Shown here: positions 1 to 6,068 of the stretch, piece after piece
How positions within the stretch are numbered: the first letter of the stretch is position 1
How the letters are laid out: every line of letters begins with the position of its first letter
Source: a virus
Lineage: Duplodnaviria > Caudoviricetes
DNA: 64,000 bases
Strand: one strand, 5' to 3'
IMG/VR virus record: IMGVR_UViG_2974672904_000001
Coordinates: 7,916-71,915 of that record
The notes under the pieces: model-generated
What the model was told of the DNA's origin: nothing
Seen by the model: the letters and a program-made list of their open reading frames with translations, nothing else
Database searches by the model: none
Made by a program: the position numbers and the translations under genes

Positions 1-276
1 TCCCCACACGAGGTTATCTTTATGAGGATTACTGGGGTCATCATCTAAGTGAAGTACCACGGTATATTTTCTGGGATGAGGATTTTGAACAAACGTCTTT
101 GCTACCAACCTGTGTATGGCAGTTGTTGTACGTTTGCCATTCTTGTAGACCTTTACACAAGGGTATCCTTGAGTATTTAGGTAAGGAGAAAGTTGCTGTC
201 CCTTAGCATTAAACAATGCACCATCCTCACGGAGAATATACCTAAGGGCATACCCTGCAACGTAACGGTGTTCCAT
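1..276 (-). CDS. HNH homing endonuclease (HNH_3 / I-HmuI-like), 3' end truncated by the window edge; not in the supplied ORF track
   Basis: Manual translation from ATG at 276 (SD AGGAAAAC): MEHRYVAGYALRYILREDGALFNAKGQQLSPYLNTQGYPCVKVYKNGKRTTTAIHRLVAKTFVQNPHPRKYTVVLHLDDDPSNPHKDNLVWG. Contains the HRLVA..F and H.DD...N....NL.W motifs. Confidence 0.85.
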   Translation of the reverse strand, partial: MEHRYVAGYALRYILREDGALFNAKGQQLSPYLNTQGYPCVKVYKNGKRTTTAIHRLVAKTFVQNPHPRKYTVVLHLDDDPSNPHKDNLVWG

Positions 277-289
277 AGTTTTCCTTTCT

Positions 290-669
290 GGTTACTCATC
301 TTGAAAACACCCTCCCCTCCTAAGTAAAACCACTCACAAAAGGAATAAAAATGAGAAAGATGCTTTCAAAATGAGTGGCTCGTTCTATGGAGGTGAGCCA
401 GACCTCCCGCGCTTATTTTTACGTGTAGGTGGCAAACACGACAATAAGAAGTTTTTTACATGGGTCATCTAATGTTCTTTCCACGGAAGAACTTTACAGT
501 GTCCTTCATTCATCTCGGATTAGCGATTCCAAGCCGTATATTTTACATGTCTTACGTAGCAACATGTGCTCTAGGTAGCTTTTACATCCGTTGAATACCC
601 TAGTTGTGGATGGGGTCTGTGTGAACCAAGACCTGTTAAGCCAGTGGGTTGATAGCCCTTAACTTGGTT
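290..669 (-). ncRNA. Putative structured non-coding RNA B (pseudoknot-like modules plus long hairpin)
   Basis: No ORF. 16-bp helix 294-309/361-376 whose two non-Watson-Crick pairs are G-U only in minus sense. Inverted repeat GAACCAAG 623-630/663-670. Three H-type pseudoknot-like modules (402-440, 533-567, 571-612), each first stem ending at GUAAAA. Confidence 0.6.
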
Positions 670-1059
670 CTATGTGATATCCTCAAAAAGAAGATATCGA
701 CATTCTTCATTGTGGCCTAAAGAATAAATAGGCACACCTAAACTTCGCATATATGTGATTCGAGAAGCAACTTTACTGCGAGTAGAACGGGTAAGTTTCA
801 CAAGGTCGTCTAGGTAGACGGGAGTGCCTTTCTCTAATTGAGCTAACACTTCATGGTAATAAGTGTCATAGCCCCGTTTACCATCATTGAGGGAATACTG
901 GCCATAGCCTACACGTTTCAAAACACCCTCTTGGGTCAAACGCCACAGGGCAGTACGAACAGTGTTCTCATTGCATTCAGGGAAGTGTTTACGAAGGGTG
1001 GCAACACGCATTTCTCCGTGTTCCTGTATTAACTGCTTAATCTTTGTTGCGACTGACAT
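670..1059 (-). CDS. Tandem winged helix-turn-helix nucleic-acid-binding protein (129 aa)
   Basis: SD GGAGAGGAG. N-terminal half ...NTVRTALWRLTQEGVLKRVGYGQYSL (AbiEi-N-like wHTH pattern); C-terminal half ...DDLVKLTRSTRSKVASRITYMRSLGVPI (HTH_11/BirA-like pattern). Confidence 0.6.
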   Translation of the reverse strand: MSVATKIKQLIQEHGEMRVATLRKHFPECNENTVRTALWRLTQEGVLKRVGYGQYSLNDGKRGYDTYYHEVLAQLEKGTPVYLDDLVKLTRSTRSKVASRITYMRSLGVPIYSLGHNEECRYLLFEDIT

Positions 1060-1074
1060 AATCTCCTCTCCATT

Positions 1075-1372
1075 AAGAAAACAATTTCAGTGAATGAGTG
1101 CAGGGCTTATAACCCTGCTCGAAGTCCAGTATTTTAATTCCGACTCTCGGAATTCTTCGGGGCTGTGTAGCACCGTCAGAGTCACTTTTTATGTAGTAAC
1201 AGACAACTAAGTCTGTTGGGTAGACAGGATACACTCCGAAAAGTACATCCCGATATGCCTCCTGTTCTTATAGGAACGAATCAACGATGGAAGTAATTGA
1301 TTGTTTCTCAGGAGGCATACCTGTTACCTCAAATGGGTAAGAGGGATACCGATGACGCATCCCTCTGACTCC
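1075..1372 (-). ncRNA. Putative structured non-coding RNA A
   Basis: About 300 nt with no ORF. Perfect 11-bp inverted repeat 1254-1264/1309-1319. Hairpins 1100-1118, 1142-1147/1178-1183, 1198-1217, 1324-1340, 1341-1365. Hairpin 1226-1251 has three G-U pairs in minus sense and a UUCG loop. Confidence 0.62.
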
Positions 1373-1373
1373 A

Positions 1374-3014
1374 TTATTTTAGGAGACGCATAATAGCATC
1401 TTCTTGCTCTTTTTCTACCCCAAGAGCGCCCCAACCTTTTTTAGCTTGACGCTTAATGGCAAGAGCTTCTTGTGCCTGTTCCTCGGTAGTTACAGGAAGT
1501 AGAGCAGCTAGTTTAGCCCGTGGAGATTCCTTCTTAGGAGCCTTCGGCTTAGGTGCAGACTTAGGTTTAGCCTTAGCTTTCGCTTTCGGTTTTTCCTTAG
1601 CCTTAGCCACTTCTTTGAGAGTCTCTTTCAGCTTCTCAGTAGGTTTAGCTTTGTCCACAGATTTTCTCTCTGCTTTCTTGGCTACCTCTTTAGCATCCAG
1701 AGATTTTCCCTCAAGAGGGGTAGAAGGGTCATTCACATCTTCATCAGCGATGATAGCTGATTCAGGTACCACATCTTCTTCTGCTACTTTAGTAGGGGTA
1801 GAAGTGCCCCCTGCTGTTTCATAACTAATGTTGTCCTGACTTCTGCCCTGCAAGGTAACATACTGCGTTACCCCTACGTGGTTACCCGCTAGAAGCTTAG
1901 CAATGACTTCATCTGCACCTTTGACCGTACCCAAAGAAACGTTCTGGCTAAGGGCATCGAACATCTTATCATTAGCTTTCCCGATGACGTGGTAACGACA
2001 ACAACGAATCTTAGTCGTATCGTAAGTAGGGACAGCAATAATGTCTTCAGGGGCTATTTTGATAAACAGAATAGCCCCACCGTGGAAAGACCTTAGGTAA
2101 GAGCGAGACGCTACATGTAGCCCATAAGAACAGGAAGCAGCACGGGAAGAATCCACATAGTCAATGCCCATCTGAACCACTGAACCTACTTTCTGTTTCA
2201 CCTTACCTGTATGAGAATCTGCATAGAGACCTTGTGTCGCATCTAAGATTTTCACACGCTTGTAAGCCAAGATAGAACCGTCGTCCATAATAGGGAGGTC
2301 AGCGTGTTTTAAGAAGGAAATTAAGTCCTCCACAGAGTGCTGACGTTCATGAATCATCTTGCTCAAACGAATCATGAGATTATCCATCCCTTTGATACGT
2401 CCTGCTTTCGTTGCATGTGTAACCTGAGTTTTCAAGTTATCTGCGTTAGGCAGGACAGTATCCCCTACAACAGCTACGGTAACAGCATCATTATTATCTT
2501 TACGCTGAGAAGCATGAAGAGAAGATGTTGTATCCCCTACCGGACGAGTCTCAGGTTTATCATTAATAATGTCTTTTACAGCTTGACGATGTTTCTGACG
2601 ACTCTGTTCTTGAGCAGATATCTGAGGCTTTGGTGCTACAGTATCTACAACTGGGGGTGCAGGAGTAACAGGTTCAGGCTCATCTGTTTTGAACTCTGTC
2701 TGTCCTACTTCTTGAGGAGTCAGTTCTTCTACAGGAGCAAAGAGAGTTTCTGCAAACTTTCTCGCCACACGGAAGAACTTAACCACACCTGCCGATTGCT
2801 CAGCATAGATTTCAAATTCAGCACTGGATACCTTTTGCTGTACAGGCATCAGGGCTACTTGGTGATTAACAATGTCATCCATTGCATCATAAAGAATCTT
2901 GGTATCAGCAATGTCACCTTGCTTCACAAGAATGGTAGTACCGTCTGAACGATACAGGGTGACGATAGTGGGGCTAACCACTATCCCTACAATTTTCATC
3001 TTATCCATTTTCAT
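1374..3014 (-). CDS. rIIB: rIIB-like protein
   Basis: Motifs LPIMDDGSILAYKRV, SCSYGLHVAS..Y, IKIAPEDIIAVPTYDTTKIRCCRY; lies directly after rIIA with a 4-nt overlap. Confidence 0.9.
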   Translation of the reverse strand: MKMDKMKIVGIVVSPTIVTLYRSDGTTILVKQGDIADTKILYDAMDDIVNHQVALMPVQQKVSSAEFEIYAEQSAGVVKFFRVARKFAETLFAPVEELTPQEVGQTEFKTDEPEPVTPAPPVVDTVAPKPQISAQEQSRQKHRQAVKDIINDKPETRPVGDTTSSLHASQRKDNNDAVTVAVVGDTVLPNADNLKTQVTHATKAGRIKGMDNLMIRLSKMIHERQHSVEDLISFLKHADLPIMDDGSILAYKRVKILDATQGLYADSHTGKVKQKVGSVVQMGIDYVDSSRAASCSYGLHVASRSYLRSFHGGAILFIKIAPEDIIAVPTYDTTKIRCCRYHVIGKANDKMFDALSQNVSLGTVKGADEVIAKLLAGNHVGVTQYVTLQGRSQDNISYETAGGTSTPTKVAEEDVVPESAIIADEDVNDPSTPLEGKSLDAKEVAKKAERKSVDKAKPTEKLKETLKEVAKAKEKPKAKAKAKPKSAPKPKAPKKESPRAKLAALLPVTTEEQAQEALAIKRQAKKGWGALGVEKEQEDAIMRLLK

Positions 3015-5563
3015 TCCTTGGTTATTTTAGCTAATGCTCGAAGAACTCTACGGTTGCACTCAAGAGTCTCCTTGTTATGAATACTTGCCATATTGTCAAT
3101 GTATACGGATATAACACCATCATGCACAGGAACACACTTCTTCCATTTATTAACCAATCGGTCAATGAATGGGTATGGCTTCACTGACTTTTTCATCTGG
3201 TCATAAGCCTTAGAGGTATTATTATCCATGTGATATTTGGCAATATTCGATATCGGAGATTTTTCCCTCTCAGGACGTTCAACCTTTTTCACATCGAATA
3301 AATACAGTAAGTTTTTATCCCCATCTATCATTCGTTGCAGTACACGGGTATAGAAAGGCCACCCTCGTACCTTCAGGGCATAGTTTCGTGAGACTGTATG
3401 TGCTGCTCTCGCTTTGAACCAAGCAGATTTTTTCATGTAAGCATCGGCATCTTTTGTCACTAACTCTGAGAAAGATATCTCTGTTTTAGCTTTAAGATAC
3501 TGAGGCTGTGTCATCACTATGCCCACCTCGTTACCATACACTTCAGCAAGGTCTGCCACGATAAAGCTAAATACTGTACCAGTAGCTTCACACTTGATGG
3601 TTGCTTTAGGGGTATCCTTATTTAAAGCAATCTGAACAATGGCTTTAGGTTTTGCAATATAAGCAGGATACGCACGTTTACGGTACGTAGTAACATCTAC
3701 CTTACCTTGTGCATCGAGTAGGTTAGATAGAGCAAGTACATGCCCCTGCTTATTGAAGATAGGGGCATCCCCTTTATTCACTAAACGGGTTATCTCCGCT
3801 TTCTTCTGAACCTCTGCCCGTTCTACGAAGATTCGCTTCACATGATGCGGGTCAGCTTCTTTGGATACAGTAAGGTCTTCTACGTGATAACCTGCTTGTG
3901 TATAAGTCTCCACAGCATGTTTTACAGCTTCACGAGAACGTTTATGCAAAACCTGAATTAATACCCCTTCAGGACGGAAATCCTTACCATAGAGTTGGCG
4001 TAAACGGGCACGAGCAATCTCATAGGTGTTCTGCTTTGTGAAGGTCAATAGAATAGTTTTCTTCAATGCCCCTGTAGGATTCAGCACATTGTCCAACTTT
4101 CTAACTTCTAAGTAAGGGGGACGAGCATCTGAAGGTTCATATACAGCCTGTCTCAAGGACATCATCAACAGGGGACGTTTAGAGAGGTCTTCGTCATTAA
4201 TATGAGCAATGACAGCTTTCTTCCACAACCCCTGCACCATGTTGCGTACAGAGACGCTAAAGCCCCTAGGCATATAGTGGCGTGTACGGGTTCTTGACGT
4301 TTTCCCCATAAGGCGTTTCACCTCGTCTGACCATGATGCATACATTTGGCGTTCCTGAGGAGGGAGTGCCTCGATACGGCTGCACAGGTCTTTTATATAA
4401 GGAGGAAAGAACTTATACGTAATGCGTGATTCTGCTAACACAGAGGACAGTGCTAAGTGACGGAAACTCACATTATTACTATCAGGAGCACTATTCCACT
4501 CTCTGGAAAGGTCAGAAGTTAGCGTTAATGCTTTATTGGCTTCATAGATTTCCTCAAAGATAGGAAGCTCTTTCCGTTCGGCATATAACCCGTCTGTAAC
4601 GGCTTTTATCTCTTTATCCAAGGCTTCGGGTACCTTAGCAAAGAACTCGTCAAATAAGCCCTGTACAGCCTTCACAGTAATGTCCTGCATCGACATTTCT
4701 TCACGACTAGGTGTAATAGCAAGGCTGTCAGGTTTAGCTTGAAGAATGAGGTTGTAATTACAACGACCGCTTACATGGTCAAGCAAGTTTCCAATCAGTT
4801 CATAATCGTCATGATAGTCTTCATGGTCAGAAAGGGGATAAACCACATTCCCATAACGAACATAGATGCTTCTTGTGTTGGTCATGCCCGTTGCATACTG
4901 AGGAACAAATGCAAAAGAATTCTCATCCATGCTCATGTCTAATGTAGGGAGAATCTCACCATCCATGTCACACGATATAGAACCAAGAAATACCACTTCA
5001 CGAATAATACTGTGAATATTTCGGATGGTATTTTCAGGTACTGGAATACGTAGCGTAAGTCCTGTTCTCACTGTAGGGAGAGACACAATAGGAGTGAAGC
5101 TAGGGAACCCATCTTTATTTGGGTCAGAGCGAAGCATACGATAGATAGTGCGAACACCTCCATGATATGCAGTCACTTCAAAATTGTCAGTATAGGCATA
5201 CGGAGATTTACACCCGTAACCAAAACCACCTGTTTGACGACCATCGTTTTTCTTAGTTGAATTACCAATCGTACAATACACTTCACCCATCTTAGCGTGA
5301 GGGATACCTGTACCACTGTCTTCAATAACCAGATGACCATCATCTATGGCTACTTTAATTGGAGTGCTGGTGGTGCCATTGGCAATATGAGAATCCCATG
5401 CATTACACAAGGCTTCACGAACCATTGCATACAGAGGGTTCTTATACAAAGAAGCAAAGAATACTTTGAATGCTTCTGGGGTTTGGGCAAATGTAAATGC
5501 CTGACTTTGACCTGAGGCTACTAGAGCACTCTCAACTTGGTCGGAGACTTTGGATACTTCCAT
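3011..5563 (-). CDS. rIIA: rIIA-like protein (N-terminal GHKL ATPase domain)
   Basis: GHKL motifs REALCNAWDSH, IEDSGTGI, STK..DGRQTGGFGYGCKSPYAYTDNF; 850 aa; precedes rIIB. Confidence 0.92.
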   Translation of the reverse strand: MEVSKVSDQVESALVASGQSQAFTFAQTPEAFKVFFASLYKNPLYAMVREALCNAWDSHIANGTTSTPIKVAIDDGHLVIEDSGTGIPHAKMGEVYCTIGNSTKKNDGRQTGGFGYGCKSPYAYTDNFEVTAYHGGVRTIYRMLRSDPNKDGFPSFTPIVSLPTVRTGLTLRIPVPENTIRNIHSIIREVVFLGSISCDMDGEILPTLDMSMDENSFAFVPQYATGMTNTRSIYVRYGNVVYPLSDHEDYHDDYELIGNLLDHVSGRCNYNLILQAKPDSLAITPSREEMSMQDITVKAVQGLFDEFFAKVPEALDKEIKAVTDGLYAERKELPIFEEIYEANKALTLTSDLSREWNSAPDSNNVSFRHLALSSVLAESRITYKFFPPYIKDLCSRIEALPPQERQMYASWSDEVKRLMGKTSRTRTRHYMPRGFSVSVRNMVQGLWKKAVIAHINDEDLSKRPLLMMSLRQAVYEPSDARPPYLEVRKLDNVLNPTGALKKTILLTFTKQNTYEIARARLRQLYGKDFRPEGVLIQVLHKRSREAVKHAVETYTQAGYHVEDLTVSKEADPHHVKRIFVERAEVQKKAEITRLVNKGDAPIFNKQGHVLALSNLLDAQGKVDVTTYRKRAYPAYIAKPKAIVQIALNKDTPKATIKCEATGTVFSFIVADLAEVYGNEVGIVMTQPQYLKAKTEISFSELVTKDADAYMKKSAWFKARAAHTVSRNYALKVRGWPFYTRVLQRMIDGDKNLLYLFDVKKVERPEREKSPISNIAKYHMDNNTSKAYDQMKKSVKPYPFIDRLVNKWKKCVPVHDGVISVYIDNMASIHNKETLECNRRVLRALAKITKE

Positions 5564-5594
5564 AATTTAATTCCTTGGTTGAAAGGGTTAAACA

Positions 5595-6068
5595 CTATAA
5601 ACGTGGGTCTATGCCTTTGGCAAAATCCACTACGACAATATCGACATTAGGAGTTGCATCATTAATGATGGCTTCAATCCATTCCCAATTGCCTAAACCA
5701 AGACCTGCACCAATACGAGGGATATAGATAATATGTCCCTGCCATATATCGTTGACGGTCATGAAACCTTTCCCTACGGCTGCGTAGTTAACCTGACGAG
5801 TATTTCGACTTGTCTTAGCTTGGGTGTACATATTAATGACAGTGAACTGAGGGCAGTTATGGACAGAATATGCCCCTAAGATAGGGGTAGGCATTCGTTT
5901 GTCTGCATTCTCTACGGCAGGACAAAAATTAGCAAGCTGACGTGCAATACCTGCACCCATTGTTTTCTGACAATTACAGCCATGCACCATTACCATTGGT
6001 GACGTGGTGCCGTACTGGGCATTGTGTAGCATGGTGACTAAATCACCTTTTACATAATCAACAATCAT
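5595..6068 (-). CDS. Macro-domain ADP-ribose binding/hydrolase protein (phage Poa1p/DarG-like)
   Basis: VKGDL, VHGCNCQKTMGAGIARQL, VINMYTQ and PRIGAGLG.G.W are macro-domain motifs. Confidence 0.88.
   Translation of the reverse strand: MIVDYVKGDLVTMLHNAQYGTTSPMVMVHGCNCQKTMGAGIARQLANFCPAVENADKRMPTPILGAYSVHNCPQFTVINMYTQAKTSRNTRQVNYAAVGKGFMTVNDIWQGHIIYIPRIGAGLGLGNWEWIEAIINDATPNVDIVVVDFAKGIDPRL

Follow-up and report, generated by a model that had tools for sequence, protein, structure and literature searches.

In the variable tRNA region of phage T4, stable RNAs other than tRNAs are co-transcribed with the tRNAs, processed by host RNases, and encoded beside free-standing homing endonucleases. IscB proteins, of about 400–500 aa, combine a split RuvC domain with an HNH domain (plus PLMP) and have as their RNA partner HEARO, or omega RNA. 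Type III antitoxins are tandem, near-identical ToxI repeats of 34–45 nt located beside the gene for a ToxN/AbiQ-type endoribonuclease; ToxN-type RNases cut the units at A-rich sites, and phages carry pseudo-ToxI decoys. Winged helices such as those of SelB and Z-alpha bind structured RNA. GOLLD and ROOL are multi-junction, pseudoknotted ncRNAs of 0.5–0.8 kb and of unknown function that commonly occur in phages or prophages and close to tRNAs (PMC5737381). In N4-like phages early transcription, and in LUZ7 middle transcription as well, relies on DNA hairpin promoters; these promoters have a stem of ~4–7 bp and a conserved 3-nt loop (3–4 nt in the LUZ7 middle promoters) and are read on single-stranded DNA (PMC9163698). 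In LUZ7 an ORF-free intergenic stretch also gives several abundant small RNAs, some of them apparently processed (PMC9163698). AcrIIIA1 is a small phage protein that works with host t(m)RNA-derived fragments against host defence (PMC11662646). Phage structured RNAs of unknown function remain few, and most are metagenomic and lack a culturable system.

Results

The window, by which we mean the whole 64,000-nt stretch of DNA analysed, comes from an N4-like phage of the genus Mukerjeevirus whose host is Vibrio breoganii. On its minus strand rIIB (3014–1374), an upstream neighbour outside the cassette described below, is followed by gap A (1373–1060, 314 nt), a gene for a 129-aa wHTH protein (1059–670), gap B (669–277, 393 nt) and an HNH gene (1–276); the ORF coordinates thus agree with the gene order and sizes given in a first-pass annotation made from the sequence alone. 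Only the first 92 of the 128 HNH codons lie within the window, the rest being beyond its left edge. Retrieval of the DNA left of position 1, a check suggested in that annotation, yielded the full 128-aa HNH, a MazG-like pyrophosphohydrolase gene whose start the HNH gene overlaps, a DUF7740-like ORF and tRNA-Pro. Each of the rIIB, wHTH and HNH genes is a complete ORF that has its own start and stop codon, and annotated relatives concur. The two gaps had been described as unusually long, and a ranking based on ~83 ORF-defined genes agreed: the longest gaps in the genome are 410, 393 (B), 336 (which contains tRNA-Pro) and 314 nt (A), placing B second and A fourth, and the remainder are ≤272 nt. 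No terminator-like site was scored on the minus strand of positions 1–3100, as expected from the earlier remark that none was obvious between the genes. A 10-bp hairpin immediately 3′ of the rIIB stop (1341–1365, minus strand) has no U-tract and was not scored as a terminator; it is restricted to the Mukerjeevirus lineage and absent from the Pariacacavirus alignment rows. Sense-strand ORFs in the gaps are short and their frame is lost between lineages, leaving no conserved ORF, and no paralogs of A or B were found elsewhere in the phage genome.

Searches against known RNA families placed the gaps in none of them. Rfam gave no match at E ≤ 1 over positions 1–6000, and an Infernal cmscan of positions 250–1400 against all Rfam 15 families at E ≤ 10 returned two sub-threshold junk rows and no HEARO. 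The Intron_gpI model was unmatched in both searches, and ARAGORN and Rfam detected no tRNA or tmRNA in positions 1–1372, the sole call in the genome being the tRNA-Pro outside this region; the first reading by eye, which had seen no group I core and no tRNA or tmRNA ends, was therefore correct. A group I intron carrying the HNH gene was considered and rejected, as there is neither a catalytic core nor an interrupted gene. The GOLLD and ROOL models gave no match in the window or in loci L003, L004 and L017. We read the cassette RNA as belonging to no Rfam family and as a new phage ncRNA cassette. The 8-mer GAACCAAG was considered as a promoter motif and rejected; it is over-represented genome-wide (92 vs 52).

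Pieces of what we call the cassette, which runs A–wHTH–B–B3′ in the window, were found in two further lineages, the Pariacacavirus phages 1.238.A and 1.245.O and the D456 group. In Pariacacavirus the order is wHTH–X–B–tRNA-like–B3′–A, with B, B3′ and A contiguous in a single ORF-free stretch of ~950 nt that follows the wHTH gene, an arrangement that gives some support to the earlier idea of one large ncRNA. In L004 B3′ sits directly 5′ of RNA A, and rIIB was not detected in Pariacacavirus and does not adjoin its cassette. The D456 group has only a 135-nt part of B, the B-core, and nhmmer profiles of A and B3′ gave no match in D456 and other loci. Outside the cassette, ~20 kb of Pariacacavirus sequence and the window genome are almost wholly dissimilar at the nucleotide level; RNA B, a 295-nt block (376–670, minus strand), is nonetheless 99.0% identical in 1.238.A and 97.3% identical in 1.245.O. 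Exact-pattern scans of IMG/VR (three), metagenome contigs and GTDB genomes returned only the known phage or chance 20–22-mers that did not extend, and a search for the N4 gp24-like ATPase in IMG/VR, used as a route to further relatives, did not widen the family.

The relatives L004 (4413–4498) and L017 (2460–2619) contain tRNA-like elements that consist of an acceptor stem and T-arm alone and are uncalled by ARAGORN and by the Rfam tRNA and tmRNA models; none was found inside the window. A beta-tmRNA (permuted) Rfam match of 12.9 bits on the T-arm of the L004 element was rejected as sub-threshold junk. At the syntenic site of phage VBP32 there are a tRNA-Trp, a pseudo-tRNA and an HNH gene. The cassette resembles GOLLD and ROOL in that its relatives contain tRNA-like elements and lie in the island of Vibrio N4-like phages that holds tRNA and HNH genes, but it differs from them in being modular and permutable, without a fixed architecture, in being known from just three phage lineages, and in matching no Rfam model. 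Its likeness to the T4 tRNA region is one of description: the window cassette itself lacks a tRNA-like handle, and processing would here be a proposal.

RNA A gave the stronger folding signal. In z-scores that compared the MFE with dinucleotide shuffles, each run being repeated, A in the gene sense (−112.2 kcal/mol) scored −7.1 (repeat −6.5) and in the antisense −3.6 (repeat −3.4), making it an exceptional folding outlier; B scored −2.3 (repeat −3.2) in the gene sense and +0.4 (repeat +0.5) in the antisense; taken over its full length, it beats shuffles by only a modest margin. The two strands do differ genuinely, the gene sense being favoured. The A core (1100–1321, minus strand) has six helices, including a 13-bp stem (1321–1309 with 1264–1252) and an 11–12-bp hairpin (1251–1226). 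A diverges by ~21% between this phage and Pariacacavirus; 93.8% of the 65 core pairs stay paired across lineages and 7 show double-sided changes, vs 0–3 in slid controls. The six helices show G-U to A-U/G-C single-side changes as well as double changes, and a 33-nt insertion in Pariacacavirus A falls precisely within the apical loop of stem 2.

RNA B is built of hairpin and pseudoknot modules. Its B-core (536–670, minus strand, 135 nt), the motif common to all three phage lineages, folds as a three-way junction, a pseudoknot and a hairpin. P1 (670–663 with 630–623) surrounds two small hairpins; the pseudoknot comprises stems S1 (612–608 with 589–585) and S2 (603–599 with 575–571), the loop of S2, and so far S2 itself, being invariant; and the hairpin is P3 (567–545). 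R1, a covariance model of the B-core, scored 171.5 bits in the window and 111.8 bits (E 3e-26) in D456, with a single copy per genome, and found no match in the genomes of pVa5, VBP32 and D497. Relative to D456, S1 carries two double changes and P1 is retained through altered pairs. Phage 1.261.O, which is missing ~90 nt of B, has a P3 hairpin of the D456 type; its apparent P3 covariation is an allele swap in common with D456 and involves no point compensation. Downstream of B, B3′ (295–375, minus strand) is a long hairpin with a 23-bp outer helix and an inner stem, and on its 3′ strand are an SD-like run rich in purines and, at 299, an AUG that is out of frame. In comparison with Pariacacavirus (helix 13), 6 pairs show double-sided changes and 4 single-sided ones, and pairing is lost in 2. 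A CsrA-sponge role was considered and rejected, no GGA enrichment being seen by eye.

Compensatory changes in homologues, which had been suggested as a check along with the Rfam scan and the shuffled folding controls, were thus present in A, B3′ and the B-core, resting on three lineages (effectively two for A and B3′) and few independent events, counted without R-scape-type significance. The G-U intermediates fit a gene-sense RNA only, and the earlier argument that G-U pairs work only in the minus sense is upheld by the pair changes as well as by the strand-asymmetric folding. Both observations bear on the possibility that the locus acts as DNA, whether as an origin of replication, a hotspot for recombination or a set of single-stranded hairpin promoters of the N4 type. 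Such promoters are established in N4-like phages (PMC9163698), the cassette is a recombination mosaic, and two identical GC-rich hairpins (GGAGCC-TTCG-GGCTCC, 6 bp with a 4-nt loop), absent from the window, bracket the Pariacacavirus cassette and would fit a hairpin promoter. The hairpins in the window, however, have by inspection loops of 4–11 nt and stems of 5–23 bp with G-U pairs, unlike the 3-nt-loop promoter hairpins; on the opposite strand the G-U pairs and intermediates become A-C mismatches; the folding is strongly strand-asymmetric; and the position in the genome varies between lineages, which argues against an origin. We consider a DNA-level element very unlikely.

Synonymous sites of the wHTH gene differ from those of Pariacacavirus with a pS of 0.63, compared with differences of ~21% in A and 1–3% in B, and A and B are thus far more conserved than these sites, although recent transfer on its own, without constraint, could account for the 97–99% identity of B. 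Taken with the structural data, these comparisons support the view that the structured RNAs are conserved and selected as RNA in the gene sense. They also bear on whether the gaps are selfish or decaying sequence, functionless remnants of tRNA or other genes with homing-endonuclease debris. The narrow distribution and the setting, an accessory island with HNH and tRNA genes whose relatives hold tRNA-like fragments and a pseudo-tRNA, are what decay would leave. It would not, however, be expected to leave conservation well above that of synonymous sites, compensatory changes that keep helices in several modules and lineages, or an insertion limited to an apical loop, and we give this explanation very little credence.

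Six YGUAAR motifs lie in positions 418–586 of the minus strand, that is, in the gene sense of B, and five of the six occur at a pitch of 37–49 nt, each on the 3′ side of a module. Six in 169 nt of one strand compares with 150 on both strands of the 64 kb, or ~0.2 expected, for a motif that was picked after viewing the data. The units are not sequence repeats, the YGUAAR tail being their sole common feature, and Tandem Repeats Finder (minimum score 30) detected no repeats in positions 1–1500. A reading of AUGUAA as a start-stop minimal ORF was rejected, AUG being present in just three of the six motifs. In their pitch and their A-rich YGUAAA(A) tails the units are like ToxI, a likeness that we take as a lead only; unlike ToxI they are not repeats and match no Rfam family, and no ToxN/AbiQ-type toxin is found among the neighbours (rIIB, wHTH, HNH and MazG-like). 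One could imagine that RNA B, perhaps with the whole cassette, is an RNA-only counter-defence device in which pseudoknot and hairpin decoys with A-rich tails soak up RNA-targeting defence nucleases and are traded between genera with the aid of the HNH; the targets would be type III toxin-like RNases or acceptor-stem/tRNA-targeting effectors, the relatives adding tRNA-like minihelices. This more specific proposal seems to us distinctly unlikely.

The HNH protein matched Pfam HNH_3 (E 6.8e-5, residues 54–99) and the PHROG families phrog_59/1492/959 (E 1e-27 to 3e-24), which are plain HNH endonucleases, and no RuvC, PLMP or other IscB part was detected in its 128 aa; its ordinary homing-nuclease look, remarked on at first pass, is borne out by its size and by these common phage families. 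No homolog was found in the Pariacacavirus genomes in a search that matched the positive control, 1.261.O, and no small HNH adjoins the D456 B-core. We conclude that this gene encodes a homing endonuclease of the ordinary free-standing kind and is a neighbour of the cassette, not part of it. The first-pass annotation had also speculated that the nuclease might be guided or partnered by RNA, with B and/or A guiding, scaffolding or regulating it as omega RNA does IscB. As in IscB/HEARO loci, an HNH protein gene adjoins a long structured RNA, and B3′, which ends 8 nt ahead of the HNH ribosome-binding site with no terminator between, is a hairpin that could gate translation. In contrast to those loci, the HNH motif is the one IscB part here, neither HEARO nor the group I intron model is matched, and the RNA modules occur without this HNH in the relatives; in Pariacacavirus RNA A, and no nuclease gene, comes after B3′. 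An HNH-linked RNA is contradicted by these sequence comparisons, appears largely refuted, and is in our estimate extremely unlikely.

The wHTH protein gave weak Pfam wHTH matches over residues 6–59. Residues 1–60 have the H-H-H-strand-strand order of a winged helix and VIA Z scores of 9–10 to generic winged helices, with an rmsd of 1.4–2.2 over 56–60 residues. The AF2 model had a pLDDT of 66.6, with ~80–87 in the N-terminal half; residues 64–106 were modelled at low confidence as three helices, and the two halves, compared with each other, showed no sequence similarity. Of the tandem wHTH that had been proposed, the first unit is therefore a confident winged helix, whereas the second half, low in model confidence and dissimilar to the first, may be HTH-like. 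A Z-alpha assignment was rejected because its Z scores were tied with those of generic wHTH proteins; by eye, residues that we take to be the Z-alpha signature show no conservation. The protein has a dN/dS of 0.10 relative to the Pariacacavirus copy, and its second half contains an invariant, very basic helix. The family is tiny (two clusters at 90% identity): a search of 1.8 billion representatives found 5 remote matches besides the known Pariacacavirus cluster, and no related RNA was found in contexts L008 and L009 of these remote relatives.

The wHTH protein might bind hairpins of A and/or B, either autoregulating its own message, with A as the 5′ leader, or forming an RNP. This would be consistent with the proximity of gene and RNA in both V. 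breoganii phage genera despite rearrangement, with the basic helix just described, and with the presence of SelB and Z-alpha among the tied fold matches. The association is partial, however: it holds in two of the three lineages, and these two are not independent because lateral transfer accounts for the presence of the whole cassette in both genera. In D456 the B-core is present and no wHTH was detected in the whole genome; the remote relative P0006 sits among closely packed genes and has no RNA beside it; and A, which is 5′ of the gene here, is ~1 kb 3′ of it in Pariacacavirus, a poor fit to a leader. The Atlas neighbours of the protein, all below 0.9, are prophage DNA-binding regulators (DUF1627, MarR, AbiEi-like). 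We regard a wHTH-RNA system as unlikely.

Discussion

We propose, with a probability of about 0.6, that A and B are pieces of one modular structured ncRNA cassette that is laterally exchanged among Vibrio N4-like phages and acts in trans after processing. The RNA folds in the gene sense into independent modules, namely the A core, the B-core, the other B hairpins and B3′, and would be transcribed as part of a rIIB–wHTH–HNH message, because no terminator separates these genes. The transcript would then be cut by host RNases to yield small, stable RNAs; B3′, as a long hairpin, resembles an RNase III-type substrate, and the tRNA-like elements of the relatives would attract RNase P or RNase Z. The freed modules would work in trans, most likely by binding proteins during host takeover or counter-defence, and cis regulation of any single gene seems less favoured. 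At most, the HNH may promote gene conversion during co-infection and so aid the spread of B, the block next to it, and the wHTH protein, without which the B-core exists in D456, may often accompany the cassette as a passenger or regulator.

The small-RNA stretch of LUZ7 differs from the cassette in genomic place and host, and it is known from transcripts, whereas the cassette is known from conservation and structure. AcrIIIA1 serves as a precedent only: the wHTH is an unrelated protein, and the RNAs of AcrIIIA1 are host t(m)RNA fragments.

The locus clearly exemplifies the movement of an RNA cassette from one phage genus to another, and the occurrence of a 295-nt block that is 99% identical in otherwise unalignable genomes, with the order of modules permuted, bears on how ncRNAs spread in co-infection. 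The cassette is carried by isolated, sequenced phages with known hosts, the Nahant V. breoganii collection and the oyster-derived D456 group, so that deletion, RNA-seq and pull-down experiments are directly feasible.

A separate observation concerns the D456-group records, which annotate several tiny antisense ORFs over the homologous RNA, an annotation that calls for correction.

Gene order and folding of the cassette

The window corresponds to bases 7916-71915 of the 71.9-kb virus record, and its first 3.1 kb were 97.5-98% identical to Vibrio phages 1.169.O, 1.188.A/B/C, and 1.261.O (Schitoviridae, genus Mukerjeevirus; host Vibrio breoganii). The ORF map placed on the minus strand rIIA (5563-3011), rIIB (3014-1374), gap A (1373-1060, 314 nt), the gene for a 129-aa winged-helix protein (wHTH; 1059-670), gap B (669-277, 393 nt), and an HNH gene that started at 276 and ran off the left end. 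DNA to the left completed this gene to 128 aa; it overlapped a MazG-like pyrophosphohydrolase gene, beyond which lay a DUF7740-like ORF and then a tRNA-Pro. A 40-aa ORF in another frame (177-299, minus strand) overlapped the HNH start, and its AUG at 299 was preceded by a strong purine-rich SD-like run (GGAGGGGAGGG) whose bases are also the 3' strand of B3', a long hairpin at 295-375.

A simple ORF map gave about 83 genes, and among the gaps of the genome B was second in length and A fourth. Both folded better than dinucleotide shuffles in the gene sense: A exceptionally so (-112.2 kcal/mol, z -7.1; antisense z -3.6), and B moderately, with a clear strand bias (z -2.3 gene sense, +0.4 antisense). 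A repeat with a separate shuffle set gave z -6.5/-3.4 for A and -3.2/+0.5 for B, and no other long gap of the genome came near A. The gene order and structured gaps described in the first-pass annotation were thus reproduced, as was the lack of a terminator between the parts, no terminator-like site being found on the minus strand in 1-3100. B held no sense-strand ORF of at least 30 aa wholly inside it on the ORF map, the sense-strand ORFs of A were all short, and the short sense ORFs of the cassette were out of frame between lineages. The Rfam search proposed in that annotation matched no known family in the cassette region, and TRF found no tandem repeats there.

The same elements in Pariacacavirus

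A sensitive DNA search for the cassette region gave matches confined to V. breoganii phages. Phages 1.238.A and 1.245.O, of the genus Pariacacavirus, carried the pieces in a different neighbourhood and order: DUF7740 gene, wHTH, X, B, tRNA-like element, B3', A, homeodomain-like HTH gene, and N4 gp24-like ATPase. The wHTH gene was 75% identical to that of the window in nucleotides and 80% in amino acids; X was 212 nt, ORF-free, and unrelated to window sequence. B, a 295-nt block (window 376-670), showed 99.0% identity to the 1.238.A copy and 97.3% to that of 1.245.O, and was separated by the 86-nt tRNA-like element from B3' (79% identity), which A (78-80% identity, plus a 33-nt insertion) adjoined directly. 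No HNH homolog was found in the Pariacacavirus phages, the positive control 1.261.O matching at 98%, and no rIIB was detected. Beyond the cassette, this genome and some 20 kb of Pariacacavirus DNA had just two weak 70-75% stretches in common; from this near-absence of similarity, we concluded that the cassette moved by lateral transfer. B either underwent a second, recent transfer or is subject to extreme constraint. Synonymous sites of the wHTH gene gave pS 0.63 (dN/dS 0.10); therefore A (~21% divergence) and B (1-3%) were far more conserved than neutral sites.

Across the alignment of A, 93.8% of the 65 proposed pairs were paired between lineages. Seven were altered on both sides, compared with 0-3 when partners were slid by 1-3 columns as a control, and several more changed from G-U to A-U or G-C. 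Pair loss was limited to two terminal pairs and one inner hairpin misaligned by MAFFT, and the 33-nt insertion fell precisely in the apical loop of stem 2. The 23-bp helix of B3' showed six double and four single changes, and one small B hairpin was compensated in 1.245.O (G-C to A-U). Compensatory change, a check named in the first-pass annotation, was thus seen in both A and B3', and its proposal of RNA-level selection in the minus sense agreed with the G-U intermediates and the z-score asymmetry. These point to the gene-sense RNA rather than the DNA or the antisense strand, and the alternative that the cassette is a DNA-level element is disfavoured by the G-U evidence.

B-core in a third lineage

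While seeking an empty site, we found a 63-nt core homologous to B (82.5% identity) in the group of Vibrio phage D456, 27 near-identical records from seawater and oysters. It was embedded in an ORF-poor stretch of about 1 kb that precedes the same N4 gp24-like ATPase (64% identical). A covariance model built on the 135-nt B-core (window 536-670) matched D456 at 111.8 bits (E 3e-26), finding a single copy in each genome, and gave no match in pVa5, VBP32, or D497. The overall architecture was unchanged in D456. Helix P1, which closes a three-way junction, was kept (GAACCAAG/CUUGGUUC becoming GGACCAGA/UCUGGUUC), and the predicted pseudoknot stem S1 carried two double changes (CAUCC/GGAUG to UGUCC/GGACA); the predicted stem S2 and loop were invariant across lineages, so S2 offered no pair changes by which to judge it. 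P3 was a hairpin in D456, and its allele was common to D456 and 1.261.O, which also lacked about 90 nt of B; there, 34 nt (L003 6497-6530) stood in place of about 125 nt of RNA B (window 441-565). The shared allele implies that modules were exchanged by recombination and that P3 "covariation" is not point compensation, and together with the 34-nt replacement it gives at least two mosaic forms of B within one genus. Neither A nor B3' was found in D456, nor a small HNH gene adjoining its B-core. The comparison as a whole covered three lineages, and two for A and B3'. In the ORF-poor stretch of D456 (L017 2256-3717; OZ195695.1), several tiny ORFs of 102-261 nt have been annotated, most of them on the other strand, and are probably spurious; a 141-aa sense ORF (L017 3292-3717), absent from the annotation, matched phrog_24749 (E 1.8e-8).

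The two proteins

The first-pass annotation had raised the possibility of an RNA-partnered HNH. The protein fell into HNH families that are common among phages (phrog_59, 1492, and 959; lowest E 1e-27), and HNH_3 was its one Pfam match. Every membership test that could be run spoke against an RNA-guided HNH. The wHTH family was tiny. Residues 1-60 of the predicted model formed a standard winged helix (Z 9-10 in structure comparison), the best fold matches being tied among DNA-, Z-form-, and RNA-binding winged helices; its Atlas neighbours were DNA-binding regulators of prophages, none of which reached the 0.9 level. It is possible that wHTH protein and RNA form one unit, an RNP, but this is weakened by D456, in which B-core is present and no wHTH was detectable. 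A remote wHTH relative in a metagenomic phage contig (P0006, L008 2213-3387; 34% identity) lay downstream of a DUF7740 gene, at a distance of about 540 nt, and had no adjoining RNA. The same pairing in Pariacacavirus, and the DUF7740-like ORF near the cassette in this genome, suggest an old DUF7740-wHTH gene pair that would be older than the RNA.

A proposed modular RNA in a tRNA island

We read the cassette as a new, modular non-coding RNA. A cis-acting leader or trailer is argued against because the cassette is position-independent: in the window A lay 5' of the wHTH gene, whereas Pariacacavirus has it on the 3' side at a distance of about 1 kb, and the neighbours of the D456 B-core were unrelated genes. 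The RNA is probably transcribed together with the flanking genes, and would then be processed to stable RNAs that act in trans. Stable RNAs are produced from the phage T4 tRNA region, one of the nearest analogies. Others are GOLLD and ROOL, which are large RNAs associated with phages and located near tRNAs (PMC5737381), and the intergenic small-RNA hotspot of the N4-like phage LUZ7 (PMC9163698).

The tRNA-like elements of Pariacacavirus (L004 4413-4498) and D456 (L017 2460-2619, 160 nt) had a 6-7-bp acceptor stem and a canonical T-arm (GGUUCGAGUCC / GGUUCGAUUCC), with the D and anticodon arms replaced by non-tRNA inserts of 51 and about 125 nt, respectively; neither was called by ARAGORN or Rfam. 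These handles and the long B3' duplex suggest processing by host RNases. Six YGUAAR tails followed one another in B with a pitch of 37-49 nt, about 0.2 being expected for this motif, which was picked post hoc; their count and pitch suggest repeated recognition or cleavage sites. The slot used by the structured RNA in Pariacacavirus and D456 was filled at the syntenic site of VBP32 (L019 3962-4734) by a tRNA-Trp, a pseudo-tRNA, and a small HNH gene, immediately upstream of the N4 gp24-like ATPase. From this and the D456 element, we concluded that the site is a tRNA/homing-endonuclease island of Vibrio N4-like phages.

Identical hairpins in direct repeat, GGAGCCTTCGGCTCC (GGAGCC-TTCG-GGCTCC) followed by T-runs, enclosed the whole wHTH and RNA cassette of Pariacacavirus (L004 3480-3494 and 4844-4858; the same in L005, L006, and L007). 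There were exactly two copies in 15 kb of Pariacacavirus DNA, each 10-25 nt ahead of a ribosome-binding site, and none in the window; possible roles are those of terminator, LUZ7-style hairpin promoter, or recombination substrate. The 8-mer GAACCAAG, also the 5' strand of P1, occurred 92 times across the window with one mismatch allowed, compared with 52 +/- 7 expected.
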